This document shows, piece by piece, positions 9,759 to 24,764 of a stretch of 64,000 nucleotides of DNA. The stretch spans positions 39,013 to 103,012 of the forward strand of contig PQAL01000042.1 in the NCBI GenBank assembly GCA_003105035.1, in the 5' to 3' direction. The translations under genes and the position numbers were made by a program. How positions within the stretch are numbered: position 1 is the stretch's first letter; each line of letters starts with the position of its first letter. Below the pieces are notes generated by a model that was not told where the DNA came from, made no database searches, and saw nothing but the letters and a program-made list of their open reading frames with translations. Source of the DNA: Anaerolineales bacterium (GTDB lineage: Bacteria > Chloroflexota > Anaerolineae > Anaerolineales > UBA4823).

Positions 9759-10694
9759 TTACGCTGGCTTCGTGAAATCCAGGTACTGGTTCACCACCCT
9801 GAAACCGATCGATTCGTACAGGTTCCGGGCAGGCGTGTTGCTGATCCCAGTGGAGATGCACACCCGCTCCATCCCATAGGACTTCATGCGGCGCAGGCTC
9901 TCCAGCAAAGCAAGGCGGGTGAGACCCTGGCGGCGGTATTGCTCGCGTGCTCCCACCGGTCCCTGGTCTCCAATGTGGTTGAGCGGATCGATCCAGTTAT
10001 TCACTTGCGAGGCGATCACCCCCTCCGAGGTCAGGCTGACCACATCCAGGTCGCCGATATAGCCCGGCAGGCGGGTCAGGCGTAGATAATCGTCATCGCT
10101 CACATTGCCCACCGTCCAGGGTTGCCAGACCTCGCGCTCCACTGCTGCTCGGTCTGGGAGTTCTTCTTTTTTAAGCTCTCGCACCTGGTAACCAGCCGGG
10201 ATGGGCAGGTTTGGGATCGGATCCTCTAGCGAGAGCAGCATATTCACCTCGGCAAATTGGCCGCGATATGTGAAACCGTGTTCTTTTAGGAATGCCAGGC
10301 GTGGCAGGTCATCCTGGCGTCCGCCAGCTACCAGGTCTCCGCCCCACCGGTGTGCATCCCGCTGGCGCAGCTCGGCCAGGCATGCCTCTGCCCAACCCAG
10401 CGCCTCGGCTTCGATGCCTGTCCACTCGTATTCAGGCAGCACGTGCCAGTCAAATGTCGGGTCTTCCCCCAGCATGGCAAACGCCACCATCCGGTCATCC
10501 TGGTTATGCCACACACGCATGTGCTCACAGGGGTCAAGGTGGATCAAGACCATGAAATAGTTCCACAGGAACTCACCGATGTGTGGGTAGTGCCAGTCAT
10601 TGGTGTTGCGCCTGCCCACCATCAGCATGTCCAGGATATCGCGCAGGTCGCATTTGTCGTCATAGTTGCGGACTTTCACCCCGTTGGTCATCAT
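9759..10694 (-). CDS. GNAT-family N-acetyltransferase (two-lobed)
   Basis: C-terminal RRQGLTRLALLESLRRMKSYG...ARNLYESIGF acetyl-CoA motif. I chose the start at ATG 10694 (MMTNG), which is preceded by AGGAGG. The track ORF extends to 10808. Confidence 0.75.
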   Translation of the reverse strand: MMTNGVKVRNYDDKCDLRDILDMLMVGRRNTNDWHYPHIGEFLWNYFMVLIHLDPCEHMRVWHNQDDRMVAFAMLGEDPTFDWHVLPEYEWTGIEAEALGWAEACLAELRQRDAHRWGGDLVAGGRQDDLPRLAFLKEHGFTYRGQFAEVNMLLSLEDPIPNLPIPAGYQVRELKKEELPDRAAVEREVWQPWTVGNVSDDDYLRLTRLPGYIGDLDVVSLTSEGVIASQVNNWIDPLNHIGDQGPVGAREQYRRQGLTRLALLESLRRMKSYGMERVCISTGISNTPARNLYESIGFRVVNQYLDFTKPA

Positions 10695-10881
10695 TTTGTC
10701 AGCCTCCTGCAAATAGATATTATAGAGGGATTTCACCGCTGGCGTACAGTGAATGCCCCCGAATGTCACTTTCGCCGGTGTGGTCACCGGGCTTGTGCAC
10801 CAGTCCACTGTGTTTTGGGAATGTCCTGACCAGCTTACCTTTACGGCGCACCCAGACCGGGTTTCGCGTTACAATTCCAGT

Positions 10882-11559
10882 ATGGAGCGTAACGAATGGC
10901 TCAAGCAACGCCGCCACCTTTCTGAAGAGCGCTATGACCGGTTGTGGGCCCCAATTTACGACGAGCAATGGGGCAACTACATCGGTCCTCTCCACCAGCA
11001 GATGCTCACCCGCGTGCTTAATGGCCTGCCGGCCCAGGCTCTGATCCTGGATGCAGCCTGCGGGACGGGTAAATACTGGCCGATACTATCCGCCAGTGGG
11101 CGCGAGTTTGTTGGCATTGACCAGTCAGCTGCCATGCTGGAGCGTGCCCGTACGAAATTCCCCCAGGTGCCCGTTCACAAGCTGGGTTTGCAGGAGATGC
11201 GCTTTAAATCAGCCTTCGACCTGATCATCTGCATGGATGCCATGGAGAACGTCTTCCCCGAAGATTGGCCGCAGGTGCTGGCAAATTTCCGGCGGGCGCT
11301 TAAACCTGCCGGCCAGCTGTACTTCACCGTGGAGATCGCCGACCCCGCCAGCCTCGAGGCCGATTATCACTCCGCCCTGGCGAGAGGGCTGCCCGTGCTG
11401 CCTGGCGAATCGATTGGACCGACAGGCCCTGGAGATGAACAGGGGGGTTACCATTTCTACCCTTCTATGGAGCTGGTACGCCAGTGGCTATCTGCAGCCA
11501 ACTTTTCCATCCTCGAAGAAGCTGAGGCGGACGACTACCATCACTTCTGGTGCCGGTAA
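10882..11559 (+). CDS. class I SAM-dependent methyltransferase
   Basis: ILDAACGTGKY motif I. Start set at ATG 10882 (MERNEW). The longer track ORF begins at 10753. Confidence 0.8.
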   Translation: MERNEWLKQRRHLSEERYDRLWAPIYDEQWGNYIGPLHQQMLTRVLNGLPAQALILDAACGTGKYWPILSASGREFVGIDQSAAMLERARTKFPQVPVHKLGLQEMRFKSAFDLIICMDAMENVFPEDWPQVLANFRRALKPAGQLYFTVEIADPASLEADYHSALARGLPVLPGESIGPTGPGDEQGGYHFYPSMELVRQWLSAANFSILEEAEADDYHHFWCR

Positions 11560-11581: not shown

Positions 11582-12544
11582 TCAAACTGGAAAGCTTCCA
11601 TTCCCCCAGGTCGCTAATCCCACCAGCAAGCCGGTCACGGTATCCATGCCCGAGGTATGCCCCTCATGTAGTGCTTCTTCAGTTGTAATTACCAACTGCT
11701 CTCTCCCTGCACATTTTGTGATTGCCGTCGCCAGGCCTGCCAACCGGCTTGAGACTTGGCCGTGCGCCGCGTGATAAAGGTATGTACGGCTGATGTCGTT
11801 CGTCTGGTGTGAAAGGCGAATGACGAGCTTCCACAATTCCCTGAGGTAAATCAAACGCATTGCATTGCTACCTGCCACACATTGTAAGCCTGTCAGGAAT
11901 CCCACCAGGAAGTCATCGCCGCTGGGGGTCAGCCCAGATCCGAGGCCGATCAATCTGGCGACGATTTTCCCAACAGACGCATCGAGGTTCCGCACAGCTT
12001 CAATGAGCTCACGGATCAATTCCCCCACTCTATTGCGTATAGTCGATTGGGCTGAATCGCCCGCATGCCACAGCTCAGCTGCCTGGATCTCTGCGTTGTA
12101 CGACCTCTGCCGTTCATTGAGTGCCTGCCATACCAAGGTCCAGGCTGCAACGACCTGCGGGGTGATGTCATCCGCCGCCAGGCTCGGCAGGCTGCACTTC
12201 CAGCGCTTCGCCGGAGCCAAGTCGATCTCAATTTGCTCCTGGTCATCGGCTAAAACCGCGCCCCGGCAGGTAAGCCAGTCACCGGCCTTGAAATACAACT
12301 CAAAGGAGAAACCCTCTGGTGTCGCCATGCGCACCCCCTGGGGTAAATCCGCACACCCGGCAGTCACCAAAGTCAGCAGCCGGTTTGATGTTATCGGCCG
12401 TAGATTTACCGCCTCATGGAATACGCTGTGCACAGTCGCATCGAAATCTTTGCGTGGCACAGCGTATCCCAAGGTGATTGCTTTTAGCTGAATCACGTAT
12501 CGTTCATCGTTCGAATGGCATTGCGTGAGCTGGCCAAGTGCCAC
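11582..12544 (-). CDS. DUF2877 (YlbF-like) protein
   Basis: 320 aa. The LIGLGSGLTPSGDDFLVGFLTGL signature is typical of DUF2877. GTG start lies 5 nt after the upstream stop. Confidence 0.65.
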   Translation of the reverse strand: MALGQLTQCHSNDERYVIQLKAITLGYAVPRKDFDATVHSVFHEAVNLRPITSNRLLTLVTAGCADLPQGVRMATPEGFSFELYFKAGDWLTCRGAVLADDQEQIEIDLAPAKRWKCSLPSLAADDITPQVVAAWTLVWQALNERQRSYNAEIQAAELWHAGDSAQSTIRNRVGELIRELIEAVRNLDASVGKIVARLIGLGSGLTPSGDDFLVGFLTGLQCVAGSNAMRLIYLRELWKLVIRLSHQTNDISRTYLYHAAHGQVSSRLAGLATAITKCAGREQLVITTEEALHEGHTSGMDTVTGLLVGLATWGNGSFPV

Positions 12545-12549
12545 TAACC

Positions 12550-12903
12550 TTACTTGATCGGCTCGAATTTTAAGCCGTATACATCTTCTCCGTATTGCTC
12601 CTTGATCGGCTCCCAGCTGGGCTTTACCTTCATGCCCACCTTCAGCTTGTCGACTGAATCGGTCTTGATCTGGCCCATGGCCTTGACCTTGTTCTCAAAT
12701 TCGGCCACTCCAATCACCAGGTAGCGTTCGTCGAAACCCCAGGGCAGGTTGAAGATGGCCGTATAGGTCAGCAAGGTGGCATTGCCTTTCGGTTTTACCA
12801 CCTCGAAATCCCGGTTTTTACATTCCAGGCAGCGGTCGTGGTAGGGGTAGTGTAGCTTTCCGCATTTCTTGCATTTATAGGCCGTGATGGCGATTTCCTT
12901 CAT
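12550..12903 (-). CDS. DUF35 zinc-ribbon/OB-fold protein (thiolase partner)
   Basis: CKKCGKLHYPYHDRCLEC is a four-Cys ribbon (CxxC-x10-CxxC), followed by an OB-like C-terminal half. ATG at 12901-12903 overlaps the thiolase TGA at 12900-12902, an ATGA junction. Confidence 0.8.
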   Translation of the reverse strand: MKEIAITAYKCKKCGKLHYPYHDRCLECKNRDFEVVKPKGNATLLTYTAIFNLPWGFDERYLVIGVAEFENKVKAMGQIKTDSVDKLKVGMKVKPSWEPIKEQYGEDVYGLKFEPIK

Positions 12904-14090
12904 GGCTGCACCCTCCTGAGGATAAAGCATAATACGTTGTTGCCGAAACCCCCAAAATTAACCGTCAGCCCGATCTCTGCGCCTTGCACTTGCCGGTTCT
13001 GGGGTAGCTCATGCCGCAGCTGCCAGACGATATCCACCACCTGGGCTACACCGGTGGCGCCCACCGGGTGACCACGCGCTTTCAGCCCGCCTGATAGGTT
13101 GATCGGTATTTGCCCACCCAGGCGTGTTTTCCCCGTCTGGGCAGCTTTACCGCCTTCGCCCTTCTTGAAGAAGCCAATGTGCTCACTCTCGGCGATCTCC
13201 AGGATGGTGAAGGCATCATGCAGCTCAGCCACGTGCACATCCGCTGGCTTGATCTTTGCCATGGCGAATGCCTGCTGGGCTGCCAGGCTGACCGCTTTCA
13301 AATCCGTTGGATCGTCGCGTTCCGCCAGTGTGTGCGTGTCGGTGGCCTGGCCGAAGCCGGCAATGACCACCGGCGTCTTGGTGAATTTTTTAGCCATCTC
13401 CAGCGGGCACAGTACTACTGCGGCGGCCCCATCACTGACGGGGCACAGGTCATACAGGTGCAGCGGGTCGGCTGAAGTGGGGTTATTGACCACGGCGTGC
13501 GGGCTATCGAAAATCCCGGCCCGGTCAAGCGCCATCTCGACATGTGCATAAGGATTGAGCGTGCCCATCTCCTGGTTCTTCAAGGAGACCGCCAGCAGGT
13601 CCTCACGGGTTACTCCATACTTTCTCATGTATAAGCGGGTAAACATGCCCGCCATGCCAGGCAGGGTGATGCCGTAAGGGTATTCCGCCTGCGGGTGGGT
13701 CATGGTGGCCACAAAATCGGTGGCGCGCCAGCCGGTCACCTCGCGCATCTTCTCGCCACCCACCACCAGCACGGTGTCGTAGTAGCCTGATGCAACCGCC
13801 AGCAGGCCGTTTTTAATCGCCGAGGCTCCTGAGGCGGGTCCATTCTCAATGGTCTCAGCCGCGGCGGGCAGCAAGCTGAGCCGGTCCACCAGCGAGCTGG
13901 CGATGGAGGTTTGATGCTGTAAAATGCCCCCACCCATGTTCGCCACATACACAGCATCGACCGATTTATCTCCCAGTCCGGCATCGTCCAGCGCTTTTAA
14001 CGCCGCGTATGCCAGCATATCCATCAGGGTGTCTTCGTCACGCCGGCCAAAGGGAATCATGCCGACGCCAACGATCGCTACGTCTCTCAT
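12900..14090 (-). CDS. thiolase-like (SCP-x/DUF35-associated type) protein lacking the nucleophilic Cys
   Basis: 396 aa. It has GGLKARGHPVGATG and NFGGFG thiolase C-terminal motifs. The expected N-x-C-A-S-G motif reads IENGPASG, with Pro85 in the Cys position. Confidence 0.8.
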   Translation of the reverse strand: MRDVAIVGVGMIPFGRRDEDTLMDMLAYAALKALDDAGLGDKSVDAVYVANMGGGILQHQTSIASSLVDRLSLLPAAAETIENGPASGASAIKNGLLAVASGYYDTVLVVGGEKMREVTGWRATDFVATMTHPQAEYPYGITLPGMAGMFTRLYMRKYGVTREDLLAVSLKNQEMGTLNPYAHVEMALDRAGIFDSPHAVVNNPTSADPLHLYDLCPVSDGAAAVVLCPLEMAKKFTKTPVVIAGFGQATDTHTLAERDDPTDLKAVSLAAQQAFAMAKIKPADVHVAELHDAFTILEIAESEHIGFFKKGEGGKAAQTGKTRLGGQIPINLSGGLKARGHPVGATGVAQVVDIVWQLRHELPQNRQVQGAEIGLTVNFGGFGNNVLCFILRRVQP

Positions 14091-14094
14091 CTCC

Positions 14095-14784
14095 TCACCT
14101 TCCTTTCAGACCGGCGATACGTTCGCGGATCGTATCATCATCTGCGAACTTGATATCAGCCATGGCTTCTTCGAGCAGGTCCTGGGGTACCGGCCGATCG
14201 CCCACTACCAGGCGTGATTTGGCAGCATTGTAGATTTCGCGCGTCAGCCGATAAGAATCGCCACCGCCCATCTCATGCGGGATCTTGGTCGGCTCCAGAG
14301 GATACTCGATCATCCAGCGCCTGAAGCCGATCGGGCTCTCGGCCACGATCAGCACTTCCTCCTGCCCGATGAAGTCCATGTGATATTCCATCTTGGCAGC
14401 AAACAGGTGCGAGCCGATGCGCAGGCCTCGGTCAATCGCCAGGGTATGGTAGCTCATACCCACTTTTGGGTTCTCCAGCCGCCCATTGACCACACCCACC
14501 AGGTAACCATCCACCTGGCCCATCAGGCAGTACTCGCTCTTCACCCGGTAGCGGTACCATGCCAGCAGCTCGCCGTACAGCCTGGCACTGACGATATCGT
14601 AATAGTCTCGCTCAATGAACATACACGGGTGAACCGATTTCAGGATCACCGGCACATCCTCGCGCCTTGCCTGGCGCACCACCATCTTCTTGCCATTGGC
14701 TAGGATGATCACTTTGGGTGGATAAGGCGGCATGGGGATCTGTTCGGGGCGTAGAACCGCTTCAAGTTCCATATCAATTGGCAT
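14095..14784 (-). CDS. hypothetical protein, possibly a divergent GNAT fold
   Basis: 229 aa. VRQARREDVPVILKSV... and AIDRGLRIGSHLFAAKM loosely resemble GNAT motifs A and B. I recognise no confident family. It sits 4 nt upstream of the thiolase-like gene. Confidence 0.4.
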   Translation of the reverse strand: MPIDMELEAVLRPEQIPMPPYPPKVIILANGKKMVVRQARREDVPVILKSVHPCMFIERDYYDIVSARLYGELLAWYRYRVKSEYCLMGQVDGYLVGVVNGRLENPKVGMSYHTLAIDRGLRIGSHLFAAKMEYHMDFIGQEEVLIVAESPIGFRRWMIEYPLEPTKIPHEMGGGDSYRLTREIYNAAKSRLVVGDRPVPQDLLEEAMADIKFADDDTIRERIAGLKGR

Positions 14785-14851
14785 ACGGGGCCTCCTAATT
14801 TACATCCAATATTGAAACTCACGGGCAGGCTGATCGCCTCCCCTGGGTTCC

Positions 14852-15733
14852 TTATTCCATATTTTTGCTGCTCAGCTTGTTGATGCGCTCGAGGTGAGCC
14901 GGGTCATAGGCATCCCCAAACTTCGTTTTCTGCATACCGGCTTTCTTGGTCATGAGTTTCTCATATTCGGCATCATCCACCATCGCCACGCAGCGCGAGA
15001 TACACGACTCGCCATCCACGAAGCGCCATGGGAACATCCCGATGGTCACCCGACCGTTGATTAGCAGGTCTATCTCACCCCCCAGGCACTCGGCATGGAT
15101 GATGCCGTATGGGAACATCTCCAGGTGCATAAGCTGGTATTTAGTGTCGTCAAAGAAGTCAGCCAGCGGCATGCCATACTTCTTCCGGAACACTTTATCG
15201 GCCTGGCGGGCCTGCCGGGGCATCCAGTCGCGGATGATGGTGTTCATCGGGTGGTCGGCACTGCCGCAGTCTACACCGATCCAGCGCAGTTTCTTCTGCT
15301 TAGCCCACACCGCAAATTCCCGGTCGGGGCCGGGGTGTTTGACCATGTAGCGAATTTCGTCGGCATTGGGCGAATCCCATCCGAAGTGATGGTAGCCGGT
15401 GTGGATGATGAGGATATCTCCCTCCCGCACCTCGACGCGCTCCTCCACCATTTGGCTGGTGTAGACGTCGTAATCCCCGCAAGCATCGCTCAGGTCAACC
15501 ACCGCCGCTTCATGGACGAGGAAATCCAGATCCAATGAAGCGATGTCTTTGCCGGGGGTATGGAAGTGGATTTCGCCATCCAGGTGGGTGCCCAGGTGGT
15601 TGGAATGGGTCAGCAGCTGCCCGTTAGCTCCATTCGGCGCCAGGCGTTTGAAATACTTGATCTGCAGCGGCTCGTACGTGGGCCAGGGTGGGGTGGCAAC
15701 CCCCAGAGGGACAGTCAGGTCGATAAATTTCAT
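14852..15733 (-). CDS. cyclase-family metal-dependent amidohydrolase (kynurenine formamidase/isatin hydrolase-like)
   Basis: 293 aa. NHLGTHLDGEIHF matches the HxGTHxDxxxH metal motif of the putative cyclase family. Confidence 0.8.
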   Translation of the reverse strand: MKFIDLTVPLGVATPPWPTYEPLQIKYFKRLAPNGANGQLLTHSNHLGTHLDGEIHFHTPGKDIASLDLDFLVHEAAVVDLSDACGDYDVYTSQMVEERVEVREGDILIIHTGYHHFGWDSPNADEIRYMVKHPGPDREFAVWAKQKKLRWIGVDCGSADHPMNTIIRDWMPRQARQADKVFRKKYGMPLADFFDDTKYQLMHLEMFPYGIIHAECLGGEIDLLINGRVTIGMFPWRFVDGESCISRCVAMVDDAEYEKLMTKKAGMQKTKFGDAYDPAHLERINKLSSKNME

Positions 15734-15791
15734 TTTTCTCTCCTTTTATGCATCATAAATTCAACACGTAGATACCCAAGGCTTGATATCT

Positions 15792-17189
15792 TTATATCTC
15801 ACTTAGTGCTTTCCACGCCTCTCGAAAACATGCTTCCGGTGCTCTGAGAATTCCTGCCCCCACCATGCCTACCCCGGGGTCTTTGTGGGCGATGCCGGTA
15901 TTGATCTGCGGCAGGATGCCGGTCTCCATCACCTTGCGTACATCGATCCCCAGCGGTGTACCGCGGAAGTTGAGCGTTGGGATGGTCAGATTCTCATGCT
16001 CACCGAAGGTGATCTCGTACATTTCAAGGGTCGTGCGGGTTGCCAACTGGGGTGTGCCGCCCACGAACTGGGTGATGGCTGGAGCAGCTGCCATCGCCAT
16101 CCCACCGTAACCCGCCGTTTCGGTGATCGTGCTGTCACCGATGTCAGGGTTCGCATCCTTTTCTGTGTATTGTGGGAAATATAATCCCTGCACCTTGCCA
16201 GCTGGTGCGGTGAACCAGCGATCGGGCATGCTCGCCAGGCGGATACCGAAGTCGGTGCCGTTGCGCGCCATCACCGTCACGATTGAGCTGCCCGCCACAC
16301 CTTCGGCTGGCTCAAGCATGGCCTTAGCGGCGGGCATGCTCAGGTTCAGGAAAAAGTGGTCATTGCGGTCGATGAACTCGATCACCCTGGCCAGTACTTC
16401 GTTATCCCGGTTGGTGCGCGCCAGTGCCGGTCCGATCGCCCGCAAGAACAATGAGGTGGCTGCCCGGTTGCGGTTGTGGCATTCATCACCCATGTGCAGG
16501 GCCTGGGCGATCAAGCTCTTGATGTTTATTCCATCAGGCAGCGATCCTAGGGCGCGGTCCAGGGCTGGATACAGGTCGCTTGCCATCCATTTAAGGCGGG
16601 CATACACCTCCTGGCCCATCCCGCCGTAGCGCAGCACTTTCCCCAACCCTTCGTTCAGTGTGCAGAAAGTCCGGTTGCCGAATGTCTTGTTCTCCAGGAT
16701 GAACACCGGCATGCTGGGCGAGACGACCCCTGCCATGGGGCCTACGGCGTGGTGATGGTGGCAGGGTGAAAATTCGATGGCACCCGAGGCTGCCAGCTTT
16801 TGAGCGGCCTGTTCATCCGGGCAGATCTCCTCGTAAATTAATGCCCCCATCACAGCCCCACGCGTCGGCCCACACATGCGCTCCCATGCAATGGGTGGAC
16901 CGGCATGCAGGATCATGCGCTCGTGCATCCCAGGGATGACCTCCCGAGCGATCCCCATCCCCACCAGCACGGGTTGGCCCCGGCGAATACGCTCAACTGC
17001 TTCCTGGTTGGCTTCGTCAATGTCGATCCCGCCTTGCGTATGCTGCAGGTGCGGGATGCCTGCCCTGGGCGGCTGCCAGTCGACGTTGATGACCTTTACT
17101 CCCTGGTCCTTGACCGACTGGGCCATGCTTTCCAGCCCCAGGTTGAGTACGGTTAATTCTTTTCCAAATAGGTCCTTGATGCCTGTCAT
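15792..17189 (-). CDS. DUF1116 (YlbE-like) protein
   Basis: 465 aa. It has the LHAGPPIAWERMCGP motif that I associate with DUF1116, and it lies directly downstream of fdrA, as in E. coli fdrA-ylbE. Confidence 0.7.
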   Translation of the reverse strand: MTGIKDLFGKELTVLNLGLESMAQSVKDQGVKVINVDWQPPRAGIPHLQHTQGGIDIDEANQEAVERIRRGQPVLVGMGIAREVIPGMHERMILHAGPPIAWERMCGPTRGAVMGALIYEEICPDEQAAQKLAASGAIEFSPCHHHHAVGPMAGVVSPSMPVFILENKTFGNRTFCTLNEGLGKVLRYGGMGQEVYARLKWMASDLYPALDRALGSLPDGINIKSLIAQALHMGDECHNRNRAATSLFLRAIGPALARTNRDNEVLARVIEFIDRNDHFFLNLSMPAAKAMLEPAEGVAGSSIVTVMARNGTDFGIRLASMPDRWFTAPAGKVQGLYFPQYTEKDANPDIGDSTITETAGYGGMAMAAAPAITQFVGGTPQLATRTTLEMYEITFGEHENLTIPTLNFRGTPLGIDVRKVMETGILPQINTGIAHKDPGVGMVGAGILRAPEACFREAWKALSEI

Positions 17190-17196
17190 TCCGTTG

Positions 17197-18768
17197 TTAT
17201 CCTCGATCTGCGATGATCATACCCGCCAGCCTGGCTGCCTGCGCGTTGCTCTCGCACACCATCACCCCCGCCTGGGTTAGCACAGATGTGGATCGGCTCA
17301 GGCATTGTGGGTCAGCCTCCGTGCCAGTCACCGAGGCCGCTACCGCGAGCTCGCGACCTTCCTTATGTGCCAATTCCCGCGCCGCGCTAACCGCCCTGGA
17401 TAGCTCACCGGCAGGGTCAGGATGTGCCCCATAGCCCAGGACTACATCGAGTAGGATCAGTGCGGTCTGTGGGTCGCTCGCTTCCTGCAGCAGGCGACGG
17501 ATGCGCAGGTCGTTATCGATCATCGGGTGCGGCCTCCCGACGGTGAATTCCTCCTCGCCCAGGTCGATTGCCGTATGCCCCTGGCTGCGAGTGGAATCTG
17601 CCAGCGTTAACCCGCCCGGTAGCGGGGCATTCGAGTACACCGGATTGATGCGCATATCCTTCCAGATCACCTGCGCCTCGTAGCACAGGGTGCCTCCCGA
17701 GAATAGCCCCCGCAGGTAACGCTGCTTGGGGCTTAGCTGCTTCCTGAGCTCGCCTGCCTGGTGTGCCAGTTGGGTGGCATCTTTAGCCAGGTATTCTTTC
17801 ACTTCCCCAAGCTCAGGCTTCACTGCCCGTGCTGCGTATAGCGCACATTCCTGCAGGGTGTGTGCATAGGTTATGTGTGGGATTTTAGTCCGATCCGCAT
17901 CATCGCCTCCCAGGAAACAGATCATGCTGGGTTTTTTGCTCTGAACCACCTGGCTCAGGATCGAATTTGCCACCGCCGGGTCAGGCGGCTTGCTGACCAG
18001 CACAAGCACCCGGGTGGCAGGGTCCTGTTGGAGCGCTTTCACGCTTTCCAGCATCATGATCCCCCCCACTTCTTTGCGCAGGTCACGCCCGCCCGTCCCG
18101 ATACCCTGGGTGATGCCCACACCCTGCCGGGCTAGCAGGCAGCTCACTTCCTGCAAGCCAGTCCCCGCGGCCGAGATGATTCCCACCGGCCCTTCCGGCA
18201 GCACGTTGGCGAATCCCAGCGCCACGTGGTTCAGGATGGCCGTCCCGGCCCCTGGCCCCATCAAGAGCAGGCCGTGCTGGCGCGCATAGGTCTTGAGGGC
18301 GATCTCATCTTCCAACGAAACATTATCGCTGAATAGCAGCACATGCAAGCCGTGGTGTAAAGCTTCCCAGGCTTCATCCGCGGCAAACCGTCCCGCCACC
18401 GAGATGACTGCCAGGTTCACGCCCGGGTTTGCAGCCAGGGCGCTCCGCATGGTCTTCGGAGTGTATTCGCTACCTTCTCCACCCCCGGTTTTTTTCTTCA
18501 ACAATGCTTCGGCTTTGGCGAGGGCGGCGATAGCCAGCGCATCACTCTCACACTTGACTGCGATCAGCAGGTCATCTGGGCTGGAGGTTTCCGCTTCCTC
18601 GCTGAGCAGCCCGGCCTCCGCCAGGATGGACAGGTTCGCCTGGGTGGCCATCACCACGGCCGCGTCGTGCACGCCTTCAAAATTCGTAAGCTCACGCGCT
18701 GCCAGCATCAGGCTGACCGAGTCATGATATTCAGCAGGTTTGATCAGGGTTCGAACGACCATTTTCAT
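17197..18768 (-). CDS. fdrA: FdrA-family acyl-CoA synthetase-like protein
   Basis: 523 aa. Long collinear similarity to E. coli FdrA as recalled: YHDSVSLM, FSDNVSLEDEIALK, GFANVLPEGPVGIISAAGTGLQE, FTVGRPHPMID, VTGTEADPQC. Its start overlaps the upstream stop as ATGA at 18765-18768. Confidence 0.85.
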   Translation of the reverse strand: MKMVVRTLIKPAEYHDSVSLMLAARELTNFEGVHDAAVVMATQANLSILAEAGLLSEEAETSSPDDLLIAVKCESDALAIAALAKAEALLKKKTGGGEGSEYTPKTMRSALAANPGVNLAVISVAGRFAADEAWEALHHGLHVLLFSDNVSLEDEIALKTYARQHGLLLMGPGAGTAILNHVALGFANVLPEGPVGIISAAGTGLQEVSCLLARQGVGITQGIGTGGRDLRKEVGGIMMLESVKALQQDPATRVLVLVSKPPDPAVANSILSQVVQSKKPSMICFLGGDDADRTKIPHITYAHTLQECALYAARAVKPELGEVKEYLAKDATQLAHQAGELRKQLSPKQRYLRGLFSGGTLCYEAQVIWKDMRINPVYSNAPLPGGLTLADSTRSQGHTAIDLGEEEFTVGRPHPMIDNDLRIRRLLQEASDPQTALILLDVVLGYGAHPDPAGELSRAVSAARELAHKEGRELAVAASVTGTEADPQCLSRSTSVLTQAGVMVCESNAQAARLAGMIIADRG

Positions 18769-21119
18769 TCCTTCACGATTCCGGCATCCAGCATGGCCAG
18801 ATAGACTTTTTCGGCAGTGAAGGGTGGGCCATCAAATCTAATGCCGATGGCATCGTAGATGGCGTTGGCGATGGCCGGCACGGTTGGCACCATCGAGTGT
18901 TCGCCGATGCCGCGCGCCCCCCACGGCCCATCCGCCTGGGGCACCTCGACGATGATGGATTGCATTTTCAGTGGGGCATCGGCGGTCGTGGCAATCCGGT
19001 AATCCACAAAACTGGCATTTTGCACCACGCCGCCTTTTAATTGCAGCTGTTCGAATAATGCCGAGCTGATCCCCTGCACCAGCCCGCCCTCCATCTGCGC
19101 TTTCACCATCTCGGGGTTGATCGCCTTGCCGACGTCAAAGGCTGCCACACCCTTGAGGATCTCGATCTTCCCGCTATCCAGGTCCACTTCGAGCTCGATC
19201 GCCTGGGCACCAGTGGTGAAGTGCACCACAGCTTGCTCGCCCTGCCCGGTTTCGGGGTCCAGGCCAGTGACATACGTAGGCATGAAGCTGCCCCGTCCGA
19301 TGATCGGACCCCCCAGCCAGCCCGAGCCGTCCGGTTTGGGCAGACCGTATACAACGAGCTTTTTCAGTGAGATTTCTTTTTCGGTCTTGAACGAGACCAC
19401 GCTTCCGTCGATGATATCCAGGTCATCGATATTTTCTTCCCAAGCGTTGGCCACCAGTTCCAGCACCTGTGTTCGAGCATCGTTCGCCGCATTGATGATC
19501 GCATTGCCGGTGCTCCAGGTGATGCGGCTGGCAACGGTCTGCCATTCGTAGGGGCTGTAGCGCGTGTCAACCGGGGTTGCCAGCCTGACGCTTTCGAAGG
19601 GCACCCCGAAGGCCGCGGCTGCCATTTGGGCCGCCACGGTGAAGGCGCCCTGCCCAATATCCTGGCAGCCGATCCCCAGCGTGATCATCCCGTCCTCCGA
19701 TAACTCGATCCAGGCGCTTGATCCGGCATTGGGGGGCATGGCAGGTGCCTTCCACATCAAGGCCAGGCCTTTACCGCGGCGCTTGTTCGGGCTGCTGGGT
19801 GGGGCTACCTTCCCCCACCCGATCGCCTGGGCCGCTTTCTCAAGGCACTCCGCCAGGCCAGTTGGGTGCATTTTCCCGCCTGTCGCTAATATGCTGTGCT
19901 CCGTCAGGCAGTTCCTGCGCCGCAGCTCGACCGGATCCATCCTGATCTGGTACGCCAGGTCATCGATGCACTGCTCCAACCCGGCGTGCATCTCGGGCAT
20001 GCCGAAGCCGCGCATCGGGCCGCCCACCGGGTGGTTGGTGTACACACAGTAGCTGTCGGTTTTCACATTAGGCACTTCGTACGGCCCGGTGCAGCTGTAA
20101 CCCGCCGCACGCGTGATATTCACCCCATATTCGGTATAGGCACCGCCGTCCCAATAGAAGGTGTTCTCCATGGCGAGGATCTTACCGCTCGCATCGCAGC
20201 CGATCTTGAAATAAGAGATCAGGCCCTGGCGTACGAAGGCGGTATAGAACTCCTCCTCACGCGTCAGGAGTAGCTTCACCGGGTGGCCCCTCACCTTGGT
20301 GGCGATGGCCACTGCCAGCGATTCCATGCTCACGCCGGCCTTACCACCGAAACCACCTCCCACCACCGGAGCCACCACCCGCATGCTGCTCTGGTTGATC
20401 CCCAATGTTTGGGCGATCAGGTCGCGCTGGGCGAAGGGTGACTGCGAGCTGTCCCACAGGGTCACCTCACCCGAGGCATCCACTTTTGCGATGGCCACAT
20501 GCGGCTCGAGCGGTACGTGCTGAATGTGCGGGATGCGGTATTTGCGCTCGATGATGGCCGCACACTGCCCCCATGCTTCGGTCATGTTTCCTTTGCGGAT
20601 CTTGAAATGGTTTGAGATGTTCGTGCCCGCTACCGGCATGATGAAATTCGCCACCACATATTGACCGAGCTCCGGGTGGATAATCGGGGCGGTTGGGCTG
20701 GCCCCAAATTCGGGGTCCAGCACTGGCGGCAGCACTTCATATTCCACCTCGATGAGGTCCAGGGCTGCCTCGGCGATCTCAACCCGCGTTGCCGCTACGC
20801 CGGCAACGGGGTCACCCACGTAGCGCACGCGGTCGCGGCAGAAGATGTAGCGGTCCTGCAGGTACAGGCCGATGTGACCAGGAAAATCCTCCCCGGTAAC
20901 GACGGCTTTCACGCCTGGCAGGGCGCGTGCTTTCTCAATATTGATCCGCTTGATCAGGGCGTGTGGGTGGGGGCTGCGTTTGACGCGGGCGTGGAGCAGG
21001 GCGTTGCCAAACTGGATATCATCTGCATAGAGTGCCGCGCCGGTCACCTTATCCGGTGCATCGACCCGTTTTGTGCTTTCACCGATTGGATGGGTATGTT
21101 CGCTGTTGCCCTTTGCCAT
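18765..21119 (-). CDS. xanthine dehydrogenase-family molybdopterin-binding large subunit
   Basis: 784 aa. RVDAPDKVTGAALYADD N-terminus, VVGGGFGGK motif, and aldehyde oxidase/XDH a/b hammerhead plus Mo-binding architecture. Confidence 0.9.
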   Translation of the reverse strand: MAKGNSEHTHPIGESTKRVDAPDKVTGAALYADDIQFGNALLHARVKRSPHPHALIKRINIEKARALPGVKAVVTGEDFPGHIGLYLQDRYIFCRDRVRYVGDPVAGVAATRVEIAEAALDLIEVEYEVLPPVLDPEFGASPTAPIIHPELGQYVVANFIMPVAGTNISNHFKIRKGNMTEAWGQCAAIIERKYRIPHIQHVPLEPHVAIAKVDASGEVTLWDSSQSPFAQRDLIAQTLGINQSSMRVVAPVVGGGFGGKAGVSMESLAVAIATKVRGHPVKLLLTREEEFYTAFVRQGLISYFKIGCDASGKILAMENTFYWDGGAYTEYGVNITRAAGYSCTGPYEVPNVKTDSYCVYTNHPVGGPMRGFGMPEMHAGLEQCIDDLAYQIRMDPVELRRRNCLTEHSILATGGKMHPTGLAECLEKAAQAIGWGKVAPPSSPNKRRGKGLALMWKAPAMPPNAGSSAWIELSEDGMITLGIGCQDIGQGAFTVAAQMAAAAFGVPFESVRLATPVDTRYSPYEWQTVASRITWSTGNAIINAANDARTQVLELVANAWEENIDDLDIIDGSVVSFKTEKEISLKKLVVYGLPKPDGSGWLGGPIIGRGSFMPTYVTGLDPETGQGEQAVVHFTTGAQAIELEVDLDSGKIEILKGVAAFDVGKAINPEMVKAQMEGGLVQGISSALFEQLQLKGGVVQNASFVDYRIATTADAPLKMQSIIVEVPQADGPWGARGIGEHSMVPTVPAIANAIYDAIGIRFDGPPFTAEKVYLAMLDAGIVKE

Positions 21120-21144
21120 AGGTTGCTTCCTTCATGAACGCAGA

Positions 21145-21636
21145 TCAAGCGGTAGTAAACGCCAATGCCGCCTGCTTTTTAGCAGCTACCTTCACGGATT
21201 CGATGATCCTCTCGTAGCCAGTGCAGCGGCATAAATTCCCGACCAGTGCTTCACGAATCTCAGCTTCATCCGGGTCAGGGTTGCGCCTAAGCAGTGCTAC
21301 GGCGGAGATCAGTACGCCGGGTGTACAGAACCCACACTGCACGCCGCCCGCCTCGATCAAGGCTGCTTGGATGGGTGCCAGGTGACCATCCTGTGCCAAC
21401 CCCTCCACGGTCAGCAGCGTCGCGCCGTCACATTCCACTGCCAGCACCATGCAGCTGTTGATAGGTTCCCCGTTCATCAGCACCGTGCAAGCCCCGCACT
21501 CGCCTGCTGAGCAGCCATTCTTCGTGCCCGTGAGTGCCAGGGTCTCACGCAGCATGCGCATCAGGGTCATGTTGGACGGAACGATGACATCTTCCTGGCT
21601 GCCGTTGACGGTTAAGCTTATCTTGTGATAATTCAT
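21145..21636 (-). CDS. [2Fe-2S]-binding small subunit of the Mo-hydroxylase
   Basis: 163 aa. CSAGECGACTV, CGFCTPG and CRCTGY cysteine clusters. Confidence 0.9.
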   Translation of the reverse strand: MNYHKISLTVNGSQEDVIVPSNMTLMRMLRETLALTGTKNGCSAGECGACTVLMNGEPINSCMVLAVECDGATLLTVEGLAQDGHLAPIQAALIEAGGVQCGFCTPGVLISAVALLRRNPDPDEAEIREALVGNLCRCTGYERIIESVKVAAKKQAALAFTTA

Positions 21637-21659
21637 CTGATCCTCTACTCGCCGTGGGC

Positions 21660-22565
21660 TTACAGTGCTGGTTTGCCGAGCTTTTCTAATACTTCGTGCA
21701 ACGCTCTGATGGTCAAATTTTTGACCATCCCTTTGCGATAGCGGGCGCTGCTGCGTATATCGTCAATCGGTGCGCATGCCTCAGCTGCCATTGCAGCGGC
21801 TTCCAGCACCGATGTGCTCGTGATGGTTCGCTCAGCCAGGTAGTTTTCAACGTTTAATAACAGGAGAGGTGTTGGGGCGACGGAGGAGAGGGCTACCCGT
21901 ATGCGCATGCTCGAAGGGAGCTCAACCTCCGGCCAGCCCAGCACGGTCACAGCGACGATGGCCAGGTCGCTGAGCTTGTTACGCCCCAGCTTGAGATACC
22001 TGCCCACCGCTCCCTTTTTGGGCGGCGGCAGGTGGATTGCCGTAACCAGGTCTCCATGGGCAAGGGAGGTCTTGCCCGGCCCCAGGAAGAATGAGCTGAG
22101 GGCTTCAAAGCGTTTGCCATGGAGGCCGTAGATCTGCAGCCTGGCATCCAAAGCCAGGCAGGCTCCGAGCGTGTCTCCCGCCGGGGAAGCATTACAGATA
22201 TTGCCTGCCACGGTCGCCCGGTTGCGCAGCTGGTAGCTCGCTACCGATTGGCAGGCCTCCGCCAGGAGTGGGTAGTGCTTCTGCACTGCCGGGGAGGCGA
22301 TCAGCTGGTTCATTGTCACTGCTGACCCGATCGTCAGGCCTTGCGCAGGATTGAAGGCCAGTTCTCGCATCCCGGGCAGGTTCTTTACATCTACGAGGAA
22401 CCTGGGCTTCAGGAAACCGTCCCGCATACGCACGAGCACATCCGTACCCCCCAGGAAGGGTCGGGCCTGCTCGGCATGCTGGGCTAAAAACTGGCTGGCT
22501 TCCAGCAGGGTGGTTGGGCTGATGTAATCAAATTCGGGCAGCGTTGGGTGAGAATCGAGGCTCAT
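21660..22565 (-). CDS. FAD-binding medium subunit (CoxM/XdhB-like) of the Mo-hydroxylase
   Basis: FLGGTDVLVRMR and ATVAGNICNASPAGD FAD-binding motifs. Start set at ATG 22565 (MSLDSH), preceded by AAGGATGG. The track ORF runs to 22607. Confidence 0.85.
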   Translation of the reverse strand: MSLDSHPTLPEFDYISPTTLLEASQFLAQHAEQARPFLGGTDVLVRMRDGFLKPRFLVDVKNLPGMRELAFNPAQGLTIGSAVTMNQLIASPAVQKHYPLLAEACQSVASYQLRNRATVAGNICNASPAGDTLGACLALDARLQIYGLHGKRFEALSSFFLGPGKTSLAHGDLVTAIHLPPPKKGAVGRYLKLGRNKLSDLAIVAVTVLGWPEVELPSSMRIRVALSSVAPTPLLLLNVENYLAERTITSTSVLEAAAMAAEACAPIDDIRSSARYRKGMVKNLTIRALHEVLEKLGKPAL

Positions 22566-22823
22566 GATCGTACCATCCTTACCGTGATCAGTGAATTCTC
22601 CACACAATAGAATGGCGGTTCAACGATATGTGCTATTTATATCAGACTGGATAACTGTTTATCTTTATTCTACTTTACTTTTCCAGCTTGTTGATGACCA
22701 GATGGGCAAATCGCTTCTGGCTGGTCAAAAAAGGTTGCACATCAGCCAGCCTGAAGATTTCTAAGGATCATCAATAGAATTCACTCTGATCCTGGAATTT
22801 TCGGTTCTATTTCCCCCATAGAT

Positions 22824-22885: not shown

Positions 22886-23881
22886 CTACGGTTCCACGGG
22901 TCGTCTTCCCCGCGGCTTCAGCAATCCTGCCAGGATAAGCGCTGCACCGCTGATCGTCAGGATCAATGCTGGTATAAATTCGTCAAATCGACGACTGAGG
23001 ATCGAAGTTACCAGGGCGATGATCAAAAAGCCTACGGCTGGATAGATGGCCCAGCCGGTAGGGCGGCTGGATCGCAGCATCCATAAGATACCAAAAGTGA
23101 TGGCGATCCCCAGCATAAGGATGCTGGAGTAGCTACCGAATGAGAGTCCGCCGATCATGAAGAAGGTATCGGGGGGGAGTAATGAGACCGCTATCGCCAC
23201 AACTCCAATGCTCGCGAAACAGCCAGCCGGGATCAACGCCCACCAAGCCTTGGGTGACATAAAGAATGTCACCAAGAATGGTATGGTGAACAGAAACATC
23301 ACGATGGAGCCCTGGATCTCGCCTGCCTGTAAATACTCGATCAGAGGCAGTGTACCGATAATCGCCAGTACTGAACCCGTGATGAGTGCCCATTTCCGTG
23401 TGCGGTTGATTCCGAAGACCACCAGGAATGGTAAAGCAATCCCGTAAAGGAATATGCTCCCGATCACATTCTCATCGATGAGCTCGGATAAGGTGGGGAT
23501 GAAGCAAACCACCGTCAGGATCCAGGCAGGGATGAGTAATCCCCAATGACGGCGGTCAACCAGGTAACCCACATAGAATGGAATTGCAATGCTTGCTAAA
23601 ACTACAGATGCGATATAGGGGCTGGCCCCTGGGATAAGGTTAAGCACAAATACCAACGCCAGGGCTGCGCAGGTCAAGGCGGGGAATAGCCAACCCCAGC
23701 GCCTGATTCCGCTAACAAAATAACTGACGAAAAATGCCAGGCTGAAGCCAGCAAAGATGGCTGACCACATCTGGTCGGACATAACATCCAGGTCAATCGA
23801 TTCCAGCTTGGCTGCCAGTACCAGGCCGCCCATGCAGATCAGGATGATTCCCCAGAATACTTTGATGATTGTTTCTTTCAT
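22886..23881 (-). CDS. polytopic membrane protein built from about five internal repeats
   Basis: Start at ATG 23881 (MKETIIK), preceded by GGGAGA. There are roughly ten hydrophobic helices. The basic-W-x-L-[IF]-P-A motif recurs as RRWGWLFPAL, RRHWGLLIPAW, RTRKWALITGS, SPKAWWALIPAG and RPTGWAIYPAV. Confidence 0.6.
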   Translation of the reverse strand: MKETIIKVFWGIILICMGGLVLAAKLESIDLDVMSDQMWSAIFAGFSLAFFVSYFVSGIRRWGWLFPALTCAALALVFVLNLIPGASPYIASVVLASIAIPFYVGYLVDRRHWGLLIPAWILTVVCFIPTLSELIDENVIGSIFLYGIALPFLVVFGINRTRKWALITGSVLAIIGTLPLIEYLQAGEIQGSIVMFLFTIPFLVTFFMSPKAWWALIPAGCFASIGVVAIAVSLLPPDTFFMIGGLSFGSYSSILMLGIAITFGILWMLRSSRPTGWAIYPAVGFLIIALVTSILSRRFDEFIPALILTISGAALILAGLLKPRGRRPVEP

Positions 23882-24764
23882 GTTCCTATCTCCCTTATAA
23901 ATAAAGAAATTTTCTGATGTGAAGTGTGCTCTAAATAGCTGCTGACGGTGAATAAATCCGCATTGTCGTACCACAAGGGCTTATTGACGAGTGCGCGCGG
24001 CTGCCAATGATTTATAGTAATTTCATTTATCTTTTTGTATGACATCATCCCTCCTATCCACCACCATTCAAGGTCTTGCAGCCTTATGGAATATCGGAAT
24101 GAATTCTGCGATCTTCCACCAGCCCGATCCTTAGTATGTTGGTATGTCTTTAGGTTTTTTAACATTACCCCTCTTTAGTTTTGGGTCAGCTCTTTTACGA
24201 CAGTCCCATAATAAAACAACCTGCCAAAAAAAACATGCCCTGAATTGGGTATTAAAAGGGGATTTCTTCGGTCAGCTACTCAGCGCCGCGGCTGCCTCCA
24301 CATGGTGTATTTGCAATTGTCTGATGAGCTATAATATCCAGAAAGGCGCAAAATAATAGCGACTATCACTAGCAATGGTTTCCAGAAAACACTGGCAGTT
24401 TTCACCGCTGCCATTCCAGTGCTAGGCCGAAAGTCAAGGCTACAAAATGGAATATCTCAATCTCAGGCTGCGATGGTCGATGTTTATGTGGCTCACAATG
24501 GGTCGGATTATGTGTCGACCCGGTGACGCTGGACTATTGGATGTGCAAGCATGTGATGTACCCGTGCGCTCCCAGCCAGACTTTTATGAACCCGGATAAT
24601 AATAACAACCTGCGTAAGTCATTGCTGGGTTGCCAATCGAAAGGCGTGGGAACCATAACGGAAGCGGAGATTAAACTCCACTATTTCGACCTGATAGCAG
24701 ACCATCGGATATTCTTGCCGAATACCACCAAATCCCGCTAACAGATGCAGATTGTCATAATGGG

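Follow-up and report, generated by a model that had tools for sequence, protein, structure and literature searches.

A ten-gene cluster in Anaerolineae with a probable role in oxygen-independent, oxidative pyrimidine breakdown via barbiturate

The subject of this report is a ten-gene cluster in a 64,000-nucleotide stretch of DNA (hereafter the window) from an Anaerolineales bacterium of the Chloroflexota (GenBank assembly GCA_003105035.1, contig PQAL01000042.1, positions 39,013 to 103,012 of the forward strand). The cluster joins a three-subunit molybdenum (Mo) hydroxylase to homologues of the FdrA/AllF, AllG and AllH proteins of E. coli, a cyclase-family hydrolase, a 229-residue (aa) protein that we assign to the GNAT fold and a thiolase-like/DUF35 pair. 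A preliminary description of this DNA, made from its letters alone, had proposed a route for an N-heterocyclic or ureide-like compound, proceeding by hydroxylation, amide or ring opening, CoA or carbamoyl chemistry and finally C–C cleavage. We analyzed the cluster together with its orthologues and with a set of sister clusters, and the genomic context leads us to a more specific reading, in which Anaerolineae would probably degrade uracil or thymine via barbiturate in an oxidative pathway that is independent of oxygen. The hydroxylation, ring-opening and carbamoyl/CoA parts of the earlier scheme survive, with gene neighborhoods now pointing to pyrimidines, but a thiolytic C–C cleavage has become unlikely.

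In the list of open reading frames (ORFs) between 9 and 26 kb of the window, ten successive ORFs lie head to tail on the minus strand, from 22607 down to 11582; all cluster coordinates below refer to that strand. Direct reading of the sequence confirmed that two junctions are ATGA overlaps. At 18768–18765, the Mo subunit ends in GIVKE and a stop codon and FdrA starts with MKMVV; at 12903–12900, the thiolase-like protein ends in RRVQP and a stop codon and DUF35 starts with MKEI, with a Shine-Dalgarno AGGAGG 8 nt upstream. The remaining gaps, calculated from the coordinates, measure 23, 25, 7, 58, 67, 4 and 5 nt. The layout is thus as first described, and the Pfam and NCBIfam searches reproduced all of the domain calls that came with it. 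A single transcript for the ten genes is plausible from their arrangement. Two starts deserve comment. For the first gene, ATG at 22565, which is preceded by AAGGA and yields a protein of 301 aa, is more likely than TTG at 22607, in agreement with the orthologue in the 98%-related locus L001. The start of AllH is ambiguous between GTG at 12544, which leaves the 5-nt gap, and an in-frame GTG at 12496, which leaves 53 nt; the L001 orthologue has 305 aa.

The cluster is widely conserved. A scan of one genome per species with the GNAT protein detected at least 563 stretches encoding a relative, and the best 80 loci, all Chloroflexota metagenome-assembled genomes (MAGs) by record title and mostly Anaerolineae, were mapped. 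Locus counts out of 42 given below refer to the related genome loci whose flanks are long enough at either end, as mapped by tblastn. The order FAD-FeS-Mo-FdrA-AllG-cyclase-GNAT-thiolase-like-DUF35 recurs in Chloroflexota loci, with the first nine genes on one strand in 25/42 and all ten in 13/42, which speaks against a chance arrangement. Taken singly, DUF35 is present in all 42 loci, the thiolase-like gene in 40, the cyclase in 39, FeS in 35, FAD (on the same strand) in 33, AllG in 32 and FdrA in 31, and the median identity of AllG, cyclase, GNAT and thiolase-like proteins across related loci is 82–87% (AllG 82%). More distant GNAT homologues (45–51% identity) keep the GNAT-thiolase-like-DUF35 triad, once with a cyclase gene after it. 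When all ORFs of the related loci were clustered and searched against NCBIfam, three kinds of accessory gene stood out. An NCS2 permease occurs in 19 related loci, in most of them directly upstream of the FAD gene, and scores best as a uracil permease (239 bits vs 188 for RutG and 151 for the xanthine permease PbuX). A cytosine-deaminase-like (CodA-like) amidohydrolase lies within or beside the cluster in eight loci, and a Bmp-type ABC transporter is found in six.

The first three genes of the cluster encode an enzyme of the xanthine dehydrogenase (XDH) family, as all of the expected Pfam domains score above cut-off across three consecutive genes: FAD_binding_5 (156 bits) and CO_deh_flav_C (54 bits) in the FAD subunit (ORF 21660–22607, preferred start 22565), Fer2_2 (110.5 bits) and Fer2 (33.8 bits) in the [2Fe-2S] small subunit (21145–21636), and Ald_Xan_dh_C, MoCoBD_1 and MoCoBD_2 in the molybdopterin-binding large subunit (18765–21119), which we propose to be that of a uracil/thymine dehydrogenase. 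The small subunit lies under every NCBIfam equivalog cut-off and the large subunit does likewise, with 518.7 bits vs 780 for XdhA and 439.7 vs 783.7 for PucD. The equivalog scores for 4-hydroxybenzoyl-CoA reductase (4-HBCR) also fall short, at 513 vs 994.6 (alpha), 115.9 vs 404.6 (beta) and 191 vs 257.8 (gamma), and this is so even though, among solved proteins, 4-HBCR alpha is closest to the Mo subunit (348 bits). The best solved relative of the FAD subunit is CutM, over its full length, and because 4-HBCR beta (1RM6_B) aligns with it at residues 10–125 only, the [4Fe-4S] insertion of the reductase is absent. Motifs of the large subunit include GGGFGGKAG, with Ala where XDH has Glu802, FVRQG and GIGEHS; the last was picked by eye, and not from an alignment to a solved XDH, as a candidate for the catalytic Glu (bovine Glu1261 position). 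G-x-G-E is kept in 11/14 aligned related large subunits, the three XdhA-like ones having GFAE. Two specific identities were considered and rejected: a bona fide XDH, on account of the XdhA and PucD scores and the replacement of KE by KAG, and a 4-HBCR, on account of its far too low equivalog scores and the missing [4Fe-4S] insertion. Because of these sub-cut-off scores, the CutM-like FAD subunit and the GGGFGGKAG motif, the Mo enzyme is best described as an XDH-family hydroxylase whose specificity is not set by its sequence. In some related loci the Mo gene appears to be split or frameshifted into fragments of ~340–375 aa (L004 3698–4918, L020 3684–4601, L027 3674–4603 and L047 3650–4777), which in MAG contigs are probably assembly errors rather than pseudogenes.

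The FdrA/AllF homologue (17197–18768), a large subunit of the oxamic transcarbamylase type, is followed by the AllG homologue (15792–17189), and a homologue of AllH (11582–12544), a variable accessory member, closes the cluster. AllG and AllH are the current Pfam names of DUF1116 and DUF2877. The preliminary description had linked this triad to oxamate carbamoyltransferase, which holds but is outdated as a mere link, since the AllF-AllG-AllH complex of E. coli has been purified and is oxamic transcarbamylase (Kim and Kim, 2024; PMC11326118). The E. coli enzyme interconverts oxalurate plus phosphate and oxamate plus carbamoyl phosphate, is co-encoded with the carbamate kinase AllK, and needs neither CoA nor a nucleotide (PMC11326118). 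All three subunit families are present in the window cluster according to Pfam and NCBIfam. FdrA scores 478.8 bits against NCBIfam NF004760 (cut-off 433) and shares 39% identity with E. coli AllF across 521 residues; AllG scores 329 bits in Pfam, is 46% identical to E. coli AllG and matches PDB 3CLQ with E = 2.5e-131; AllH scores 89.6 bits and shares 35% identity with E. coli AllH along a C-terminal stretch of 111 residues. FdrA has CoA-ligase and CoA-binding Pfam domains, and a nucleotide-forming acyl-CoA synthetase was considered; it was rejected because the GHAGA phosphohistidine motif is not present in the window FdrA and the E. coli enzyme is independent of CoA and nucleotides (PMC11326118). 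The contiguous allF-allG-allH-allK arrangement of E. coli does not occur here, four genes separating AllH from AllG, and tblastn with E. coli AllB, AllC, AllD, AllE and AllK found no match in the 64-kb window, which bears out the earlier remark that no carbamate kinase, allantoinase or ureidoglycolate enzyme is to be seen there.

The cyclase-family protein (14852–15733) is a predicted metal-dependent amidohydrolase, and we propose that it opens the barbiturate ring. It scores 104.9 bits against Pfam PF04199 (cut-off 23.1) in a match limited to residues 4–161, and its metal motif HLGTHLDGEIH (HxGTHxDxxxH) aligns with that of kynurenine formamidase 4CZ1. The family includes kynurenine formamidase (KynB) and isatin hydrolase, whose amide or lactam hydrolysis suits the opening of a cyclic ureide. 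The window protein differs from these enzymes by its low score against the arylformamidase equivalog TIGR03035 (43.3 bits, cut-off 223), by its length (293 aa vs 209–215 aa in solved kynurenine formamidases, ~80 residues more) and by its wholly different genomic partners. It is present and adjoins the GNAT gene in 39/42 full-flank loci. Two kinds of insertion were seen next to this gene in other loci. An ORF of ~128 aa, which by eye resembles GxxExxY or PD-(D/E)XK-like small proteins, lies between AllG and cyclase in eight Anaerolineae loci (L018 8607–8993, L041 4203–4580, L042, L046, L055, L072, L075 and L081), at the place of the 58-nt gap in the window. A 550-aa amidohydrolase, D-aminoacylase- or dihydropyrimidinase-like, lies between cyclase and GNAT in L011 (8312–9964) and L040 (8256–9905) and may be an extra ring-opening or deacylating activity.

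The 229-aa protein (14095–14784) had been called an orphan, a status that was refuted by 3,132 homologues in a database clustered at 90% (187 representatives at 50% clustering; the database copy begins two residues later) and by its fold. No Pfam, NCBIfam or PDB sequence match was obtained for it. An AlphaFold2 model computed from an alignment of 17 diverse members reached a pLDDT of 89.7 and a pTM of 0.88, and Foldseek returned 216 PDB matches to it at E <= 0.001, the best 50 of which are all GNAT-type N-acyltransferases or carriers of such a domain (probability 1.0, TM ~0.4–0.6, E ~1e-6). Going by the model, the protein thus belongs to a divergent, widespread GNAT-fold family. The loop that would correspond to the acyl-CoA pyrophosphate-binding motif (Q/R-x-x-G-x-G/A) reads R-G-L-R-I-G, with Gly124 invariant and Arg in place of the central Gly; the broad alignment of homologues being too divergent for search patterns, a narrower one was used.

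The thiolase-like protein (12900–14090) is of the archaeal/SCP-x type. Both thiolase domains are recognized by Pfam (Thiolase_C_1 151 bits, Thiolase_N 93.5 bits), PRK06064 scores 419.4 bits, just under its cut-off of 420, and the best solved relatives are the archaeal-type acetoacetyl-CoA thiolases 7YVY (285 bits) and 6ESQ (256 bits). In the alignment with these two, ENGPASG stands where they have EAACASG, which places Pro at the position of the nucleophilic Cys, and ENGPASG is kept in 67/68 orthologues and in homologues at 55–58% identity. Canonical thiolysis or Claisen condensation via an acyl-Cys is excluded on these grounds of sequence, and the thiolytic C–C cleavage that had been expected is unlikely, as the whole family has Pro in the position of that Cys. 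The DUF35 protein (12550–12903, in an ORF spanning 12550–12930) combines a zinc ribbon and an OB fold, with scores of 24.7 bits for zf-ChsH2 (cut-off 23.2) and 27.9 bits for OB_ChsH2_C (cut-off 27.1), and has four Cys arranged as CxxC...CxxC. Its gene follows the thiolase-like gene in 60/60 loci with a downstream flank, and its best PDB match is 6ESQ_E (E = 6.8e-12), the DUF35 subunit of the archaeal thiolase/HMG-CoA synthase (HMGCS) complex.

We compared the pair with known thiolase-like/DUF35 assemblies: the archaeal complex (6ESQ/6ET9), the Ltp2-ChsH2 steroid aldolase (6OK1), BbsAB and PhlABC. Closest is the archaeal complex, which shares with the window an SCP-x/archaeal thiolase fold next to DUF35, genes that are probably coupled in translation and a third enzyme that is always co-encoded, the GNAT protein in the window and HMG-CoA synthase in archaea. 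The differences are the replacement of Cys by Pro (ENGPASG) in the window and the GNAT fold of the partner, which is not a thiolase-fold synthase. Ltp2 is said to lack the nucleophilic Cys as well, and is much more distant from the window protein (107 vs 285 bits). Decarboxylation by a Cys-less thiolase fold is known from the ketosynthase KSQ/CLF proteins and is not known from SCP-x-type thiolases. We propose that the thiolase-like protein is a malonyl-thioester decarboxylase or a scaffold; a role in decarboxylation is suggested by the sister clusters described below, where a decarboxylase of the malonyl/methylmalonyl-CoA type stands instead of this pair.

These sister clusters are associated with a second GNAT subfamily, ~32–36% identical to the window GNAT, which heads a paralogous GNAT-FdrA-AllG-cyclase set in L056, and distant members of which adjoin Na+-pumping biotin decarboxylase genes. 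A metagenome scan with this subfamily, for which 80 loci were mapped, revealed three variants, B, C and D. In variant B (L118, L119, L120, L122, L127, L136, L161 and L170), the XDH-family enzyme is 61–72% identical to that of the window, with 65–72% for the Mo subunit, and the cyclase 77–82%, FdrA and AllG are present also in L118 and L122, and the thiolase-like/DUF35 place is taken by a biotin carrier (BCCP), an OAD-beta Na+ pump (458 bits) and a carboxyltransferase of the MmdA kind, which scores 660 bits against the alpha subunit of methylmalonyl-CoA decarboxylase. Variant C has the order GNAT, FdrA, AllG, two cyclases and a CoxL-like XDH. In variant D (L128, L148, L158, L167, L168, L171 and L175–L178), there is no cyclase, and its place next to GNAT is taken by a PF09663 enzyme. 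Around the latter there are often genes for AllH, FdrA and AllG, a RutG-like permease (366 bits), a member of the XDH family and a carboxyltransferase in which AccD- and AccA-like parts are fused. Decarboxylase systems related to MmdABCD (Na+-translocating, for methylmalonyl- or malonyl-CoA) and to the biotin-independent malonate enzyme MdcD/MdcE thus occupy the thiolase-like/DUF35 place in variants B and D, suggesting that the same step, removal of the malonyl carboxyl, is carried out there; they have no sequence or fold kinship with the window proteins, and the equivalence comes from module replacement only. As side observations, the paralogous set (GNAT subfamily B, FdrA, AllG, cyclase) of L056 (1–4704) and L114 (350–4655) is transcribed divergently and lies beside an XDH-cyclase-GNAT operon that in L056 runs on into thiolase-like and DUF35 genes, which suggests two related substrates or duplicated modules. 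Three XDH-family lineages are linked to clusters with a GNAT gene, namely KAG/GEH (the window type), CoxL-like with GPK/GEAG, and XdhA-like with GGAFGGKED and RHP (survey loci L145, L149 and L161 for Mo subunits, and L096, L098, L115, L144, L148 and L177), which reflects either separate recruitment or differing substrates.

In variant D, the PF09663 enzyme is a true barbiturase orthologue. It scores 578 bits to the solved barbiturase 5HWE vs <=316 bits to cyanuric acid hydrolases, and shares with barbiturase the departure from the Arg by which the two subfamilies are told apart. Cyanuric acid was considered as an intermediate since the NCBIfam cyanuric-acid-hydrolase equivalog passed (471 bits), and was rejected in view of the higher score to 5HWE and of that Arg position. 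Among the 80 metagenome loci, 44 have the cyclase, 11 the barbiturase and none both (hypergeometric P = 5.7e-5, for loci that are related, non-independent and in many cases short), and tblastn with a barbiturase orthologue finds none in the window or in 83 related genome loci. Barbiturase and cyclase would thus be alternatives for the same step. The barbiturase is linked in turn to the other families of the cluster. GNAT relatives at 34–35% identity directly adjoin it in L175, L177 and L178, and the GNAT family is the most constant partner of the ring-opening enzyme. A natural fusion of barbiturase (PF09663) and AllH/DUF2877 (PF11392), P0297 (623 aa, on a 3,459-nt contig of the European Nucleotide Archive, ENA), provides Rosetta-stone evidence for an action of AllH on a barbiturase product. 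A carbamate kinase gene (231 bits for the partial sequence) comes after barbiturase and XDH in L128, and in Thermobispora bispora (L173 and L174, 9098–11107), the end of a carbamate kinase gene whose product has 43% identity to AllK lies a single base ahead of the barbiturase start. No FdrA or AllG was found within 10 kb of the Thermobispora barbiturase, where carbamoyl phosphate may come from another enzyme; genes for a CoA-transferase and a carboxyltransferase are located 6–8 kb upstream, and the 297-aa protein that follows the barbiturase, considered as an AllH, is His/Gly-rich and shows no similarity to it. Finally, a seven-gene operon in L177 (3196–11113) and L178 (3083–11113) consists of an NCS2 permease, FAD, FeS and CoxL-like Mo subunits, CoxG, a GNAT protein (241 aa, 35% identical to the window's) and barbiturase. 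As these loci hold three enzymes for the three steps of the classical pathway, the GNAT family is a candidate for ureidomalonase, an enzyme still without a gene, or for a CoA-dependent form of that enzyme, and as FdrA and AllG are absent there, it would in such minimal operons have to act on ureidomalonate itself.

The classical oxidative pyrimidine pathway of Rhodococcus, Corynebacterium and Mycobacterium consists of uracil/thymine dehydrogenase (EC 1.17.99.4), barbiturase (EC 3.5.2.1) and ureidomalonase (EC 3.5.1.95), and the proposed logic of the window cluster, with hydroxylation, hydrolytic ring opening and acyl-urea cleavage, is the same. In the first step, the Mo-hydroxylase would act as uracil/thymine dehydrogenase, oxidizing uracil or thymine to barbiturate or 5-methylbarbiturate with oxygen from water. 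The cyclase-family hydrolase would then open the ring to ureidomalonate (N-malonylurea), in place of the absent barbiturase. By analogy with oxalurate, of which ureidomalonate is the homologue longer by one carbon, AllF and AllG, with AllH as accessory, might in a third step phosphorolyze the carbamoyl-N bond to carbamoyl phosphate and malonamate, and carbamoyl phosphate would yield ATP via a carbamate kinase encoded elsewhere. The fourth step would fall to the GNAT protein, which would split ureidomalonate or malonamate at the malonyl-N bond and probably pass the malonyl group to CoA, as adjacency and module replacement suggest. The Cys-less thiolase-like/DUF35 pair would lastly process the malonyl unit, most likely by decarboxylation to acetyl-CoA. 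The pathway-level assignment is firmer than the order and chemistry of steps three to five, and the sequence does not decide which of the third and fourth steps comes first. Compared with the classical pathway, the sister clusters carry a true barbiturase orthologue beside the same GNAT, XDH and AllFGH families, while the window lacks barbiturase and has the cyclase-family hydrolase in that position; moreover, the classical pathway ends by hydrolysis to urea and malonate, whereas the partners in the window imply phosphorolytic or CoA-dependent cleavage and decarboxylation.

Two known systems help to put the predicted carbamoyl chemistry in perspective. Like oxalurate, the substrate of E. coli AllFGH, the proposed ureidomalonate is an N-acylurea, with one extra CH2, and carbamoyl phosphate is the product in E. 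coli and the one proposed here; a carbamate kinase, represented by AllK in E. coli, is linked in sister loci of the window cluster. The systems differ in that the window AllH stands apart and is often absent in relatives, that allK, allB, allC, allD and allE are missing from the window, and that the triad is embedded among XDH, cyclase, GNAT and thiolase-like/DUF35 genes, the substrate being put forward by analogy. The second system is the reductive uric acid pathway of gut anaerobes, in which YgeW catalyzes phosphorolytic ureido cleavage (PMC12507026; bioRxiv 10.1101/2025.05.19.654654). In both cases anaerobes would bank the ureido group of a nucleobase as carbamoyl phosphate rather than hydrolyze it, but YgeW has an ATCase/OTCase fold, unlike AllFGH, its pathway starts from a purine and not a pyrimidine, and the first step there is reductive, not hydroxylating. 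An extension of the pyrimidine pathway, which we put forward as a tentative possibility, is that energy is conserved twice: AllFGH-type phosphorolysis would give carbamoyl phosphate and ATP, and GNAT, thiolase-like protein and DUF35 would form a ternary machine acting on the malonyl amide, in which the uphill transfer of malonyl to CoA is pulled by immediate decarboxylation to acetyl-CoA, the source of a second ATP. Such a machine would be analogous to the archaeal thiolase/HMGCS/DUF35 channeling complex.

Several observations weigh against a pyrimidine pathway. The window itself is without a nucleobase transporter, cytosine deaminase, barbiturase or carbamate kinase, and because it has no pyrimidine genes, the substrate had to be inferred from orthologous and sister loci. 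Most barbiturase-linked XDH-family enzymes belong to other lineages, 28–32% identical to the window Mo subunit; only that of L128, which sits beside barbiturase and carbamate kinase and is 42% identical, shares the KAG and GEH motifs, and the window enzyme could act on a related, different heterocycle. We know of no cyclase-family enzyme that hydrolyzes barbiturate, and the roles given to the GNAT and thiolase-like proteins come solely from adjacency and module replacement. As for the carbamoyl branch, AllH is found in 18/42 full-flank loci and missing in 24 (median identity 48%), no carbamate kinase was found in the related genome loci near the Anaerolineae clusters, and the FdrA/AllG step is not obligatory, since both genes are absent from the minimal barbiturase operons.

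These points lend some weight to an alternative in which the same architecture serves another N-heterocycle or cyclic ureide (for instance a purine such as xanthine, a hydantoin, an orotate-like compound or another oxo-pyrimidine) and delivers another acyl-urea to AllFG(H) and GNAT. It would account for a Mo subunit that is below all equivalog cut-offs and 28–42% identical to barbiturase-linked XDH, for a cyclase that is unrelated to barbiturase, for Bmp-type transporters, which generally bind nucleosides or purines, and for the XdhA-like enzymes with Glu802 and RHP motifs in GNAT-linked L145, L149 and L161; the cytosine-deaminase-like and NCS2 proteins are also both below equivalog cut-offs. 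We consider this alternative a serious rival, yet less likely than a pyrimidine route via barbiturate, because the NCS2 scores favor uracil permease and RutG over xanthine permease, the window Mo subunit lacks the Glu802 of XDH, in sister clusters a true barbiturase stands in for the cyclase and never accompanies it, and malonyl/methylmalonyl-CoA-type decarboxylases suit the three-carbon fragment of a pyrimidine, not the fragments of a purine. That the cluster is simply a ureide (allantoin to oxalurate) branch, with an ordinary oxamic transcarbamylase, a xanthine/urate-forming dehydrogenase and the other genes as accessories, is much less probable still. The only characterized AllFGH is indeed the oxamic transcarbamylase of the E. 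coli allantoin regulon (PMC11326118), and the window FdrA passes the NCBIfam FdrA cut-off. Yet tblastn found none of AllB, AllC, AllD, AllE and AllK in the window, related genome loci show no carbamate kinase, the triad is split and its AllH dispensable, and the conserved GNAT/thiolase-like/DUF35 module with its decarboxylase replacements serves no purpose in the cleavage of oxalurate; the link to barbiturase points elsewhere.

An anaerobic (hetero)aromatic acyl-CoA pathway, with acid activation by FdrA, a 4-HBCR-like ring step and BbsAB-like cleavage of a beta-oxoacyl-CoA, is the least probable reading that we weighed. It would fit the 348-bit match of the Mo subunit to 4-HBCR alpha, the CoA-ligase and CoA-binding domains of FdrA and the weak matches of DUF35 and the thiolase-like protein to BbsA and BbsB, but against it the FAD subunit is CutM-like and without the [4Fe-4S] insertion, all 4-HBCR equivalog cut-offs are missed by a wide margin, the nucleophilic Cys is absent from the thiolase-like protein, FdrA has no GHAGA, and the neighboring genes are nucleobase transporters and deaminases, with no aromatic-pathway genes. 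Equally improbable as the ureide branch is that the ten genes are adjacent, unrelated operons (XDH; FdrA-AllG; cyclase-GNAT-thiolase-like-DUF35; AllH). Gaps of 58 and 67 nt flank the cyclase gene, GNAT-thiolase-like-DUF35 occurs alone in L058, L060 and L091 and with a following cyclase in L089, AllH is optional, transporter genes are inserted in some loci, and the cyclase has moved in L062, L066 and L070. Against this stand the nine genes on one strand in 25 of the full loci, a consensus scan that found no terminator-like site in any intergenic gap of the ten-gene cluster and variants B, C and D, in which the same families come together again in another order and with unrelated proteins as stand-ins, a signature of functional association.

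The biochemistry of oxidative pyrimidine breakdown dates back to the 1950s, and to our knowledge barbiturase is the only enzyme of the pathway for which a gene has been identified. Our full-text literature search, which did not cover subscription journals, found no description of the cluster and no genes for uracil dehydrogenase or ureidomalonase, in line with the preliminary description, which knew of no pathway using this combination. What would be new here is a non-homologous ring-opening enzyme and an unprecedented downstream module, the pathway type itself being known. The cluster and its sister variants offer clonable candidates for uracil/thymine dehydrogenase and ureidomalonase, and suggest that anaerobes run the oxidative pyrimidine pathway without oxygen, gaining ATP via carbamoyl phosphate and acyl-CoA. 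This would give the AllFGH transcarbamylase family a second substrate class and assign a function to a large, Pfam-less GNAT-like family and to a Cys-less thiolase/DUF35 pair. Should energy be conserved twice as outlined above, these would be the first uracil/thymine dehydrogenase genes, the GNAT protein would be the missing ureidomalonase or its CoA-dependent equivalent, the cyclase family would include a second, non-homologous barbiturase, and an SCP-x thiolase fold would have been repurposed as a decarboxylase. With several hundred Anaerolineae species carrying it, in sludge, sediment, peat and groundwater, the cluster may be a significant anoxic route for the turnover of nucleobase nitrogen and carbon.

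A number of minor observations concern signals and genes around the cluster. The 320-nt region upstream of the first gene contains a possible, weak promoter (TCAACA, 16 nt, TAGAAT; 22667–22694, minus strand), from a promoter/terminator consensus scan in which site counts were no higher than in shuffled sequence and which is therefore of little weight for the transcript structure. An Rfam scan of the whole window detected no riboswitch or other RNA family, and megablast of the 11-kb region against plasmids gave no match. The other genes in the window are unrelated to the cluster and encode signaling proteins, surface proteins and hydrolases. Directly upstream on the same strand (22886–23974, minus) lies a gene for a 362-aa polytopic membrane protein with a weak LiaF-like transmembrane match, which could be a transporter; it is absent from L001, and no evidence ties it to the cluster. 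A 432-aa KAS-III-like protein (285–1583, plus; ACP_syn_III_C), encoded about 10 kb away from the ten genes, belongs to the thiolase superfamily and is not syntenic with them. The genes downstream of AllH are a convergent SAM-methyltransferase gene (10753–11559, plus) and a gene for a 349-aa protein with a C-terminal GNAT domain (9759–10808, minus), both of which are kept in L001 and fall outside the wider synteny.

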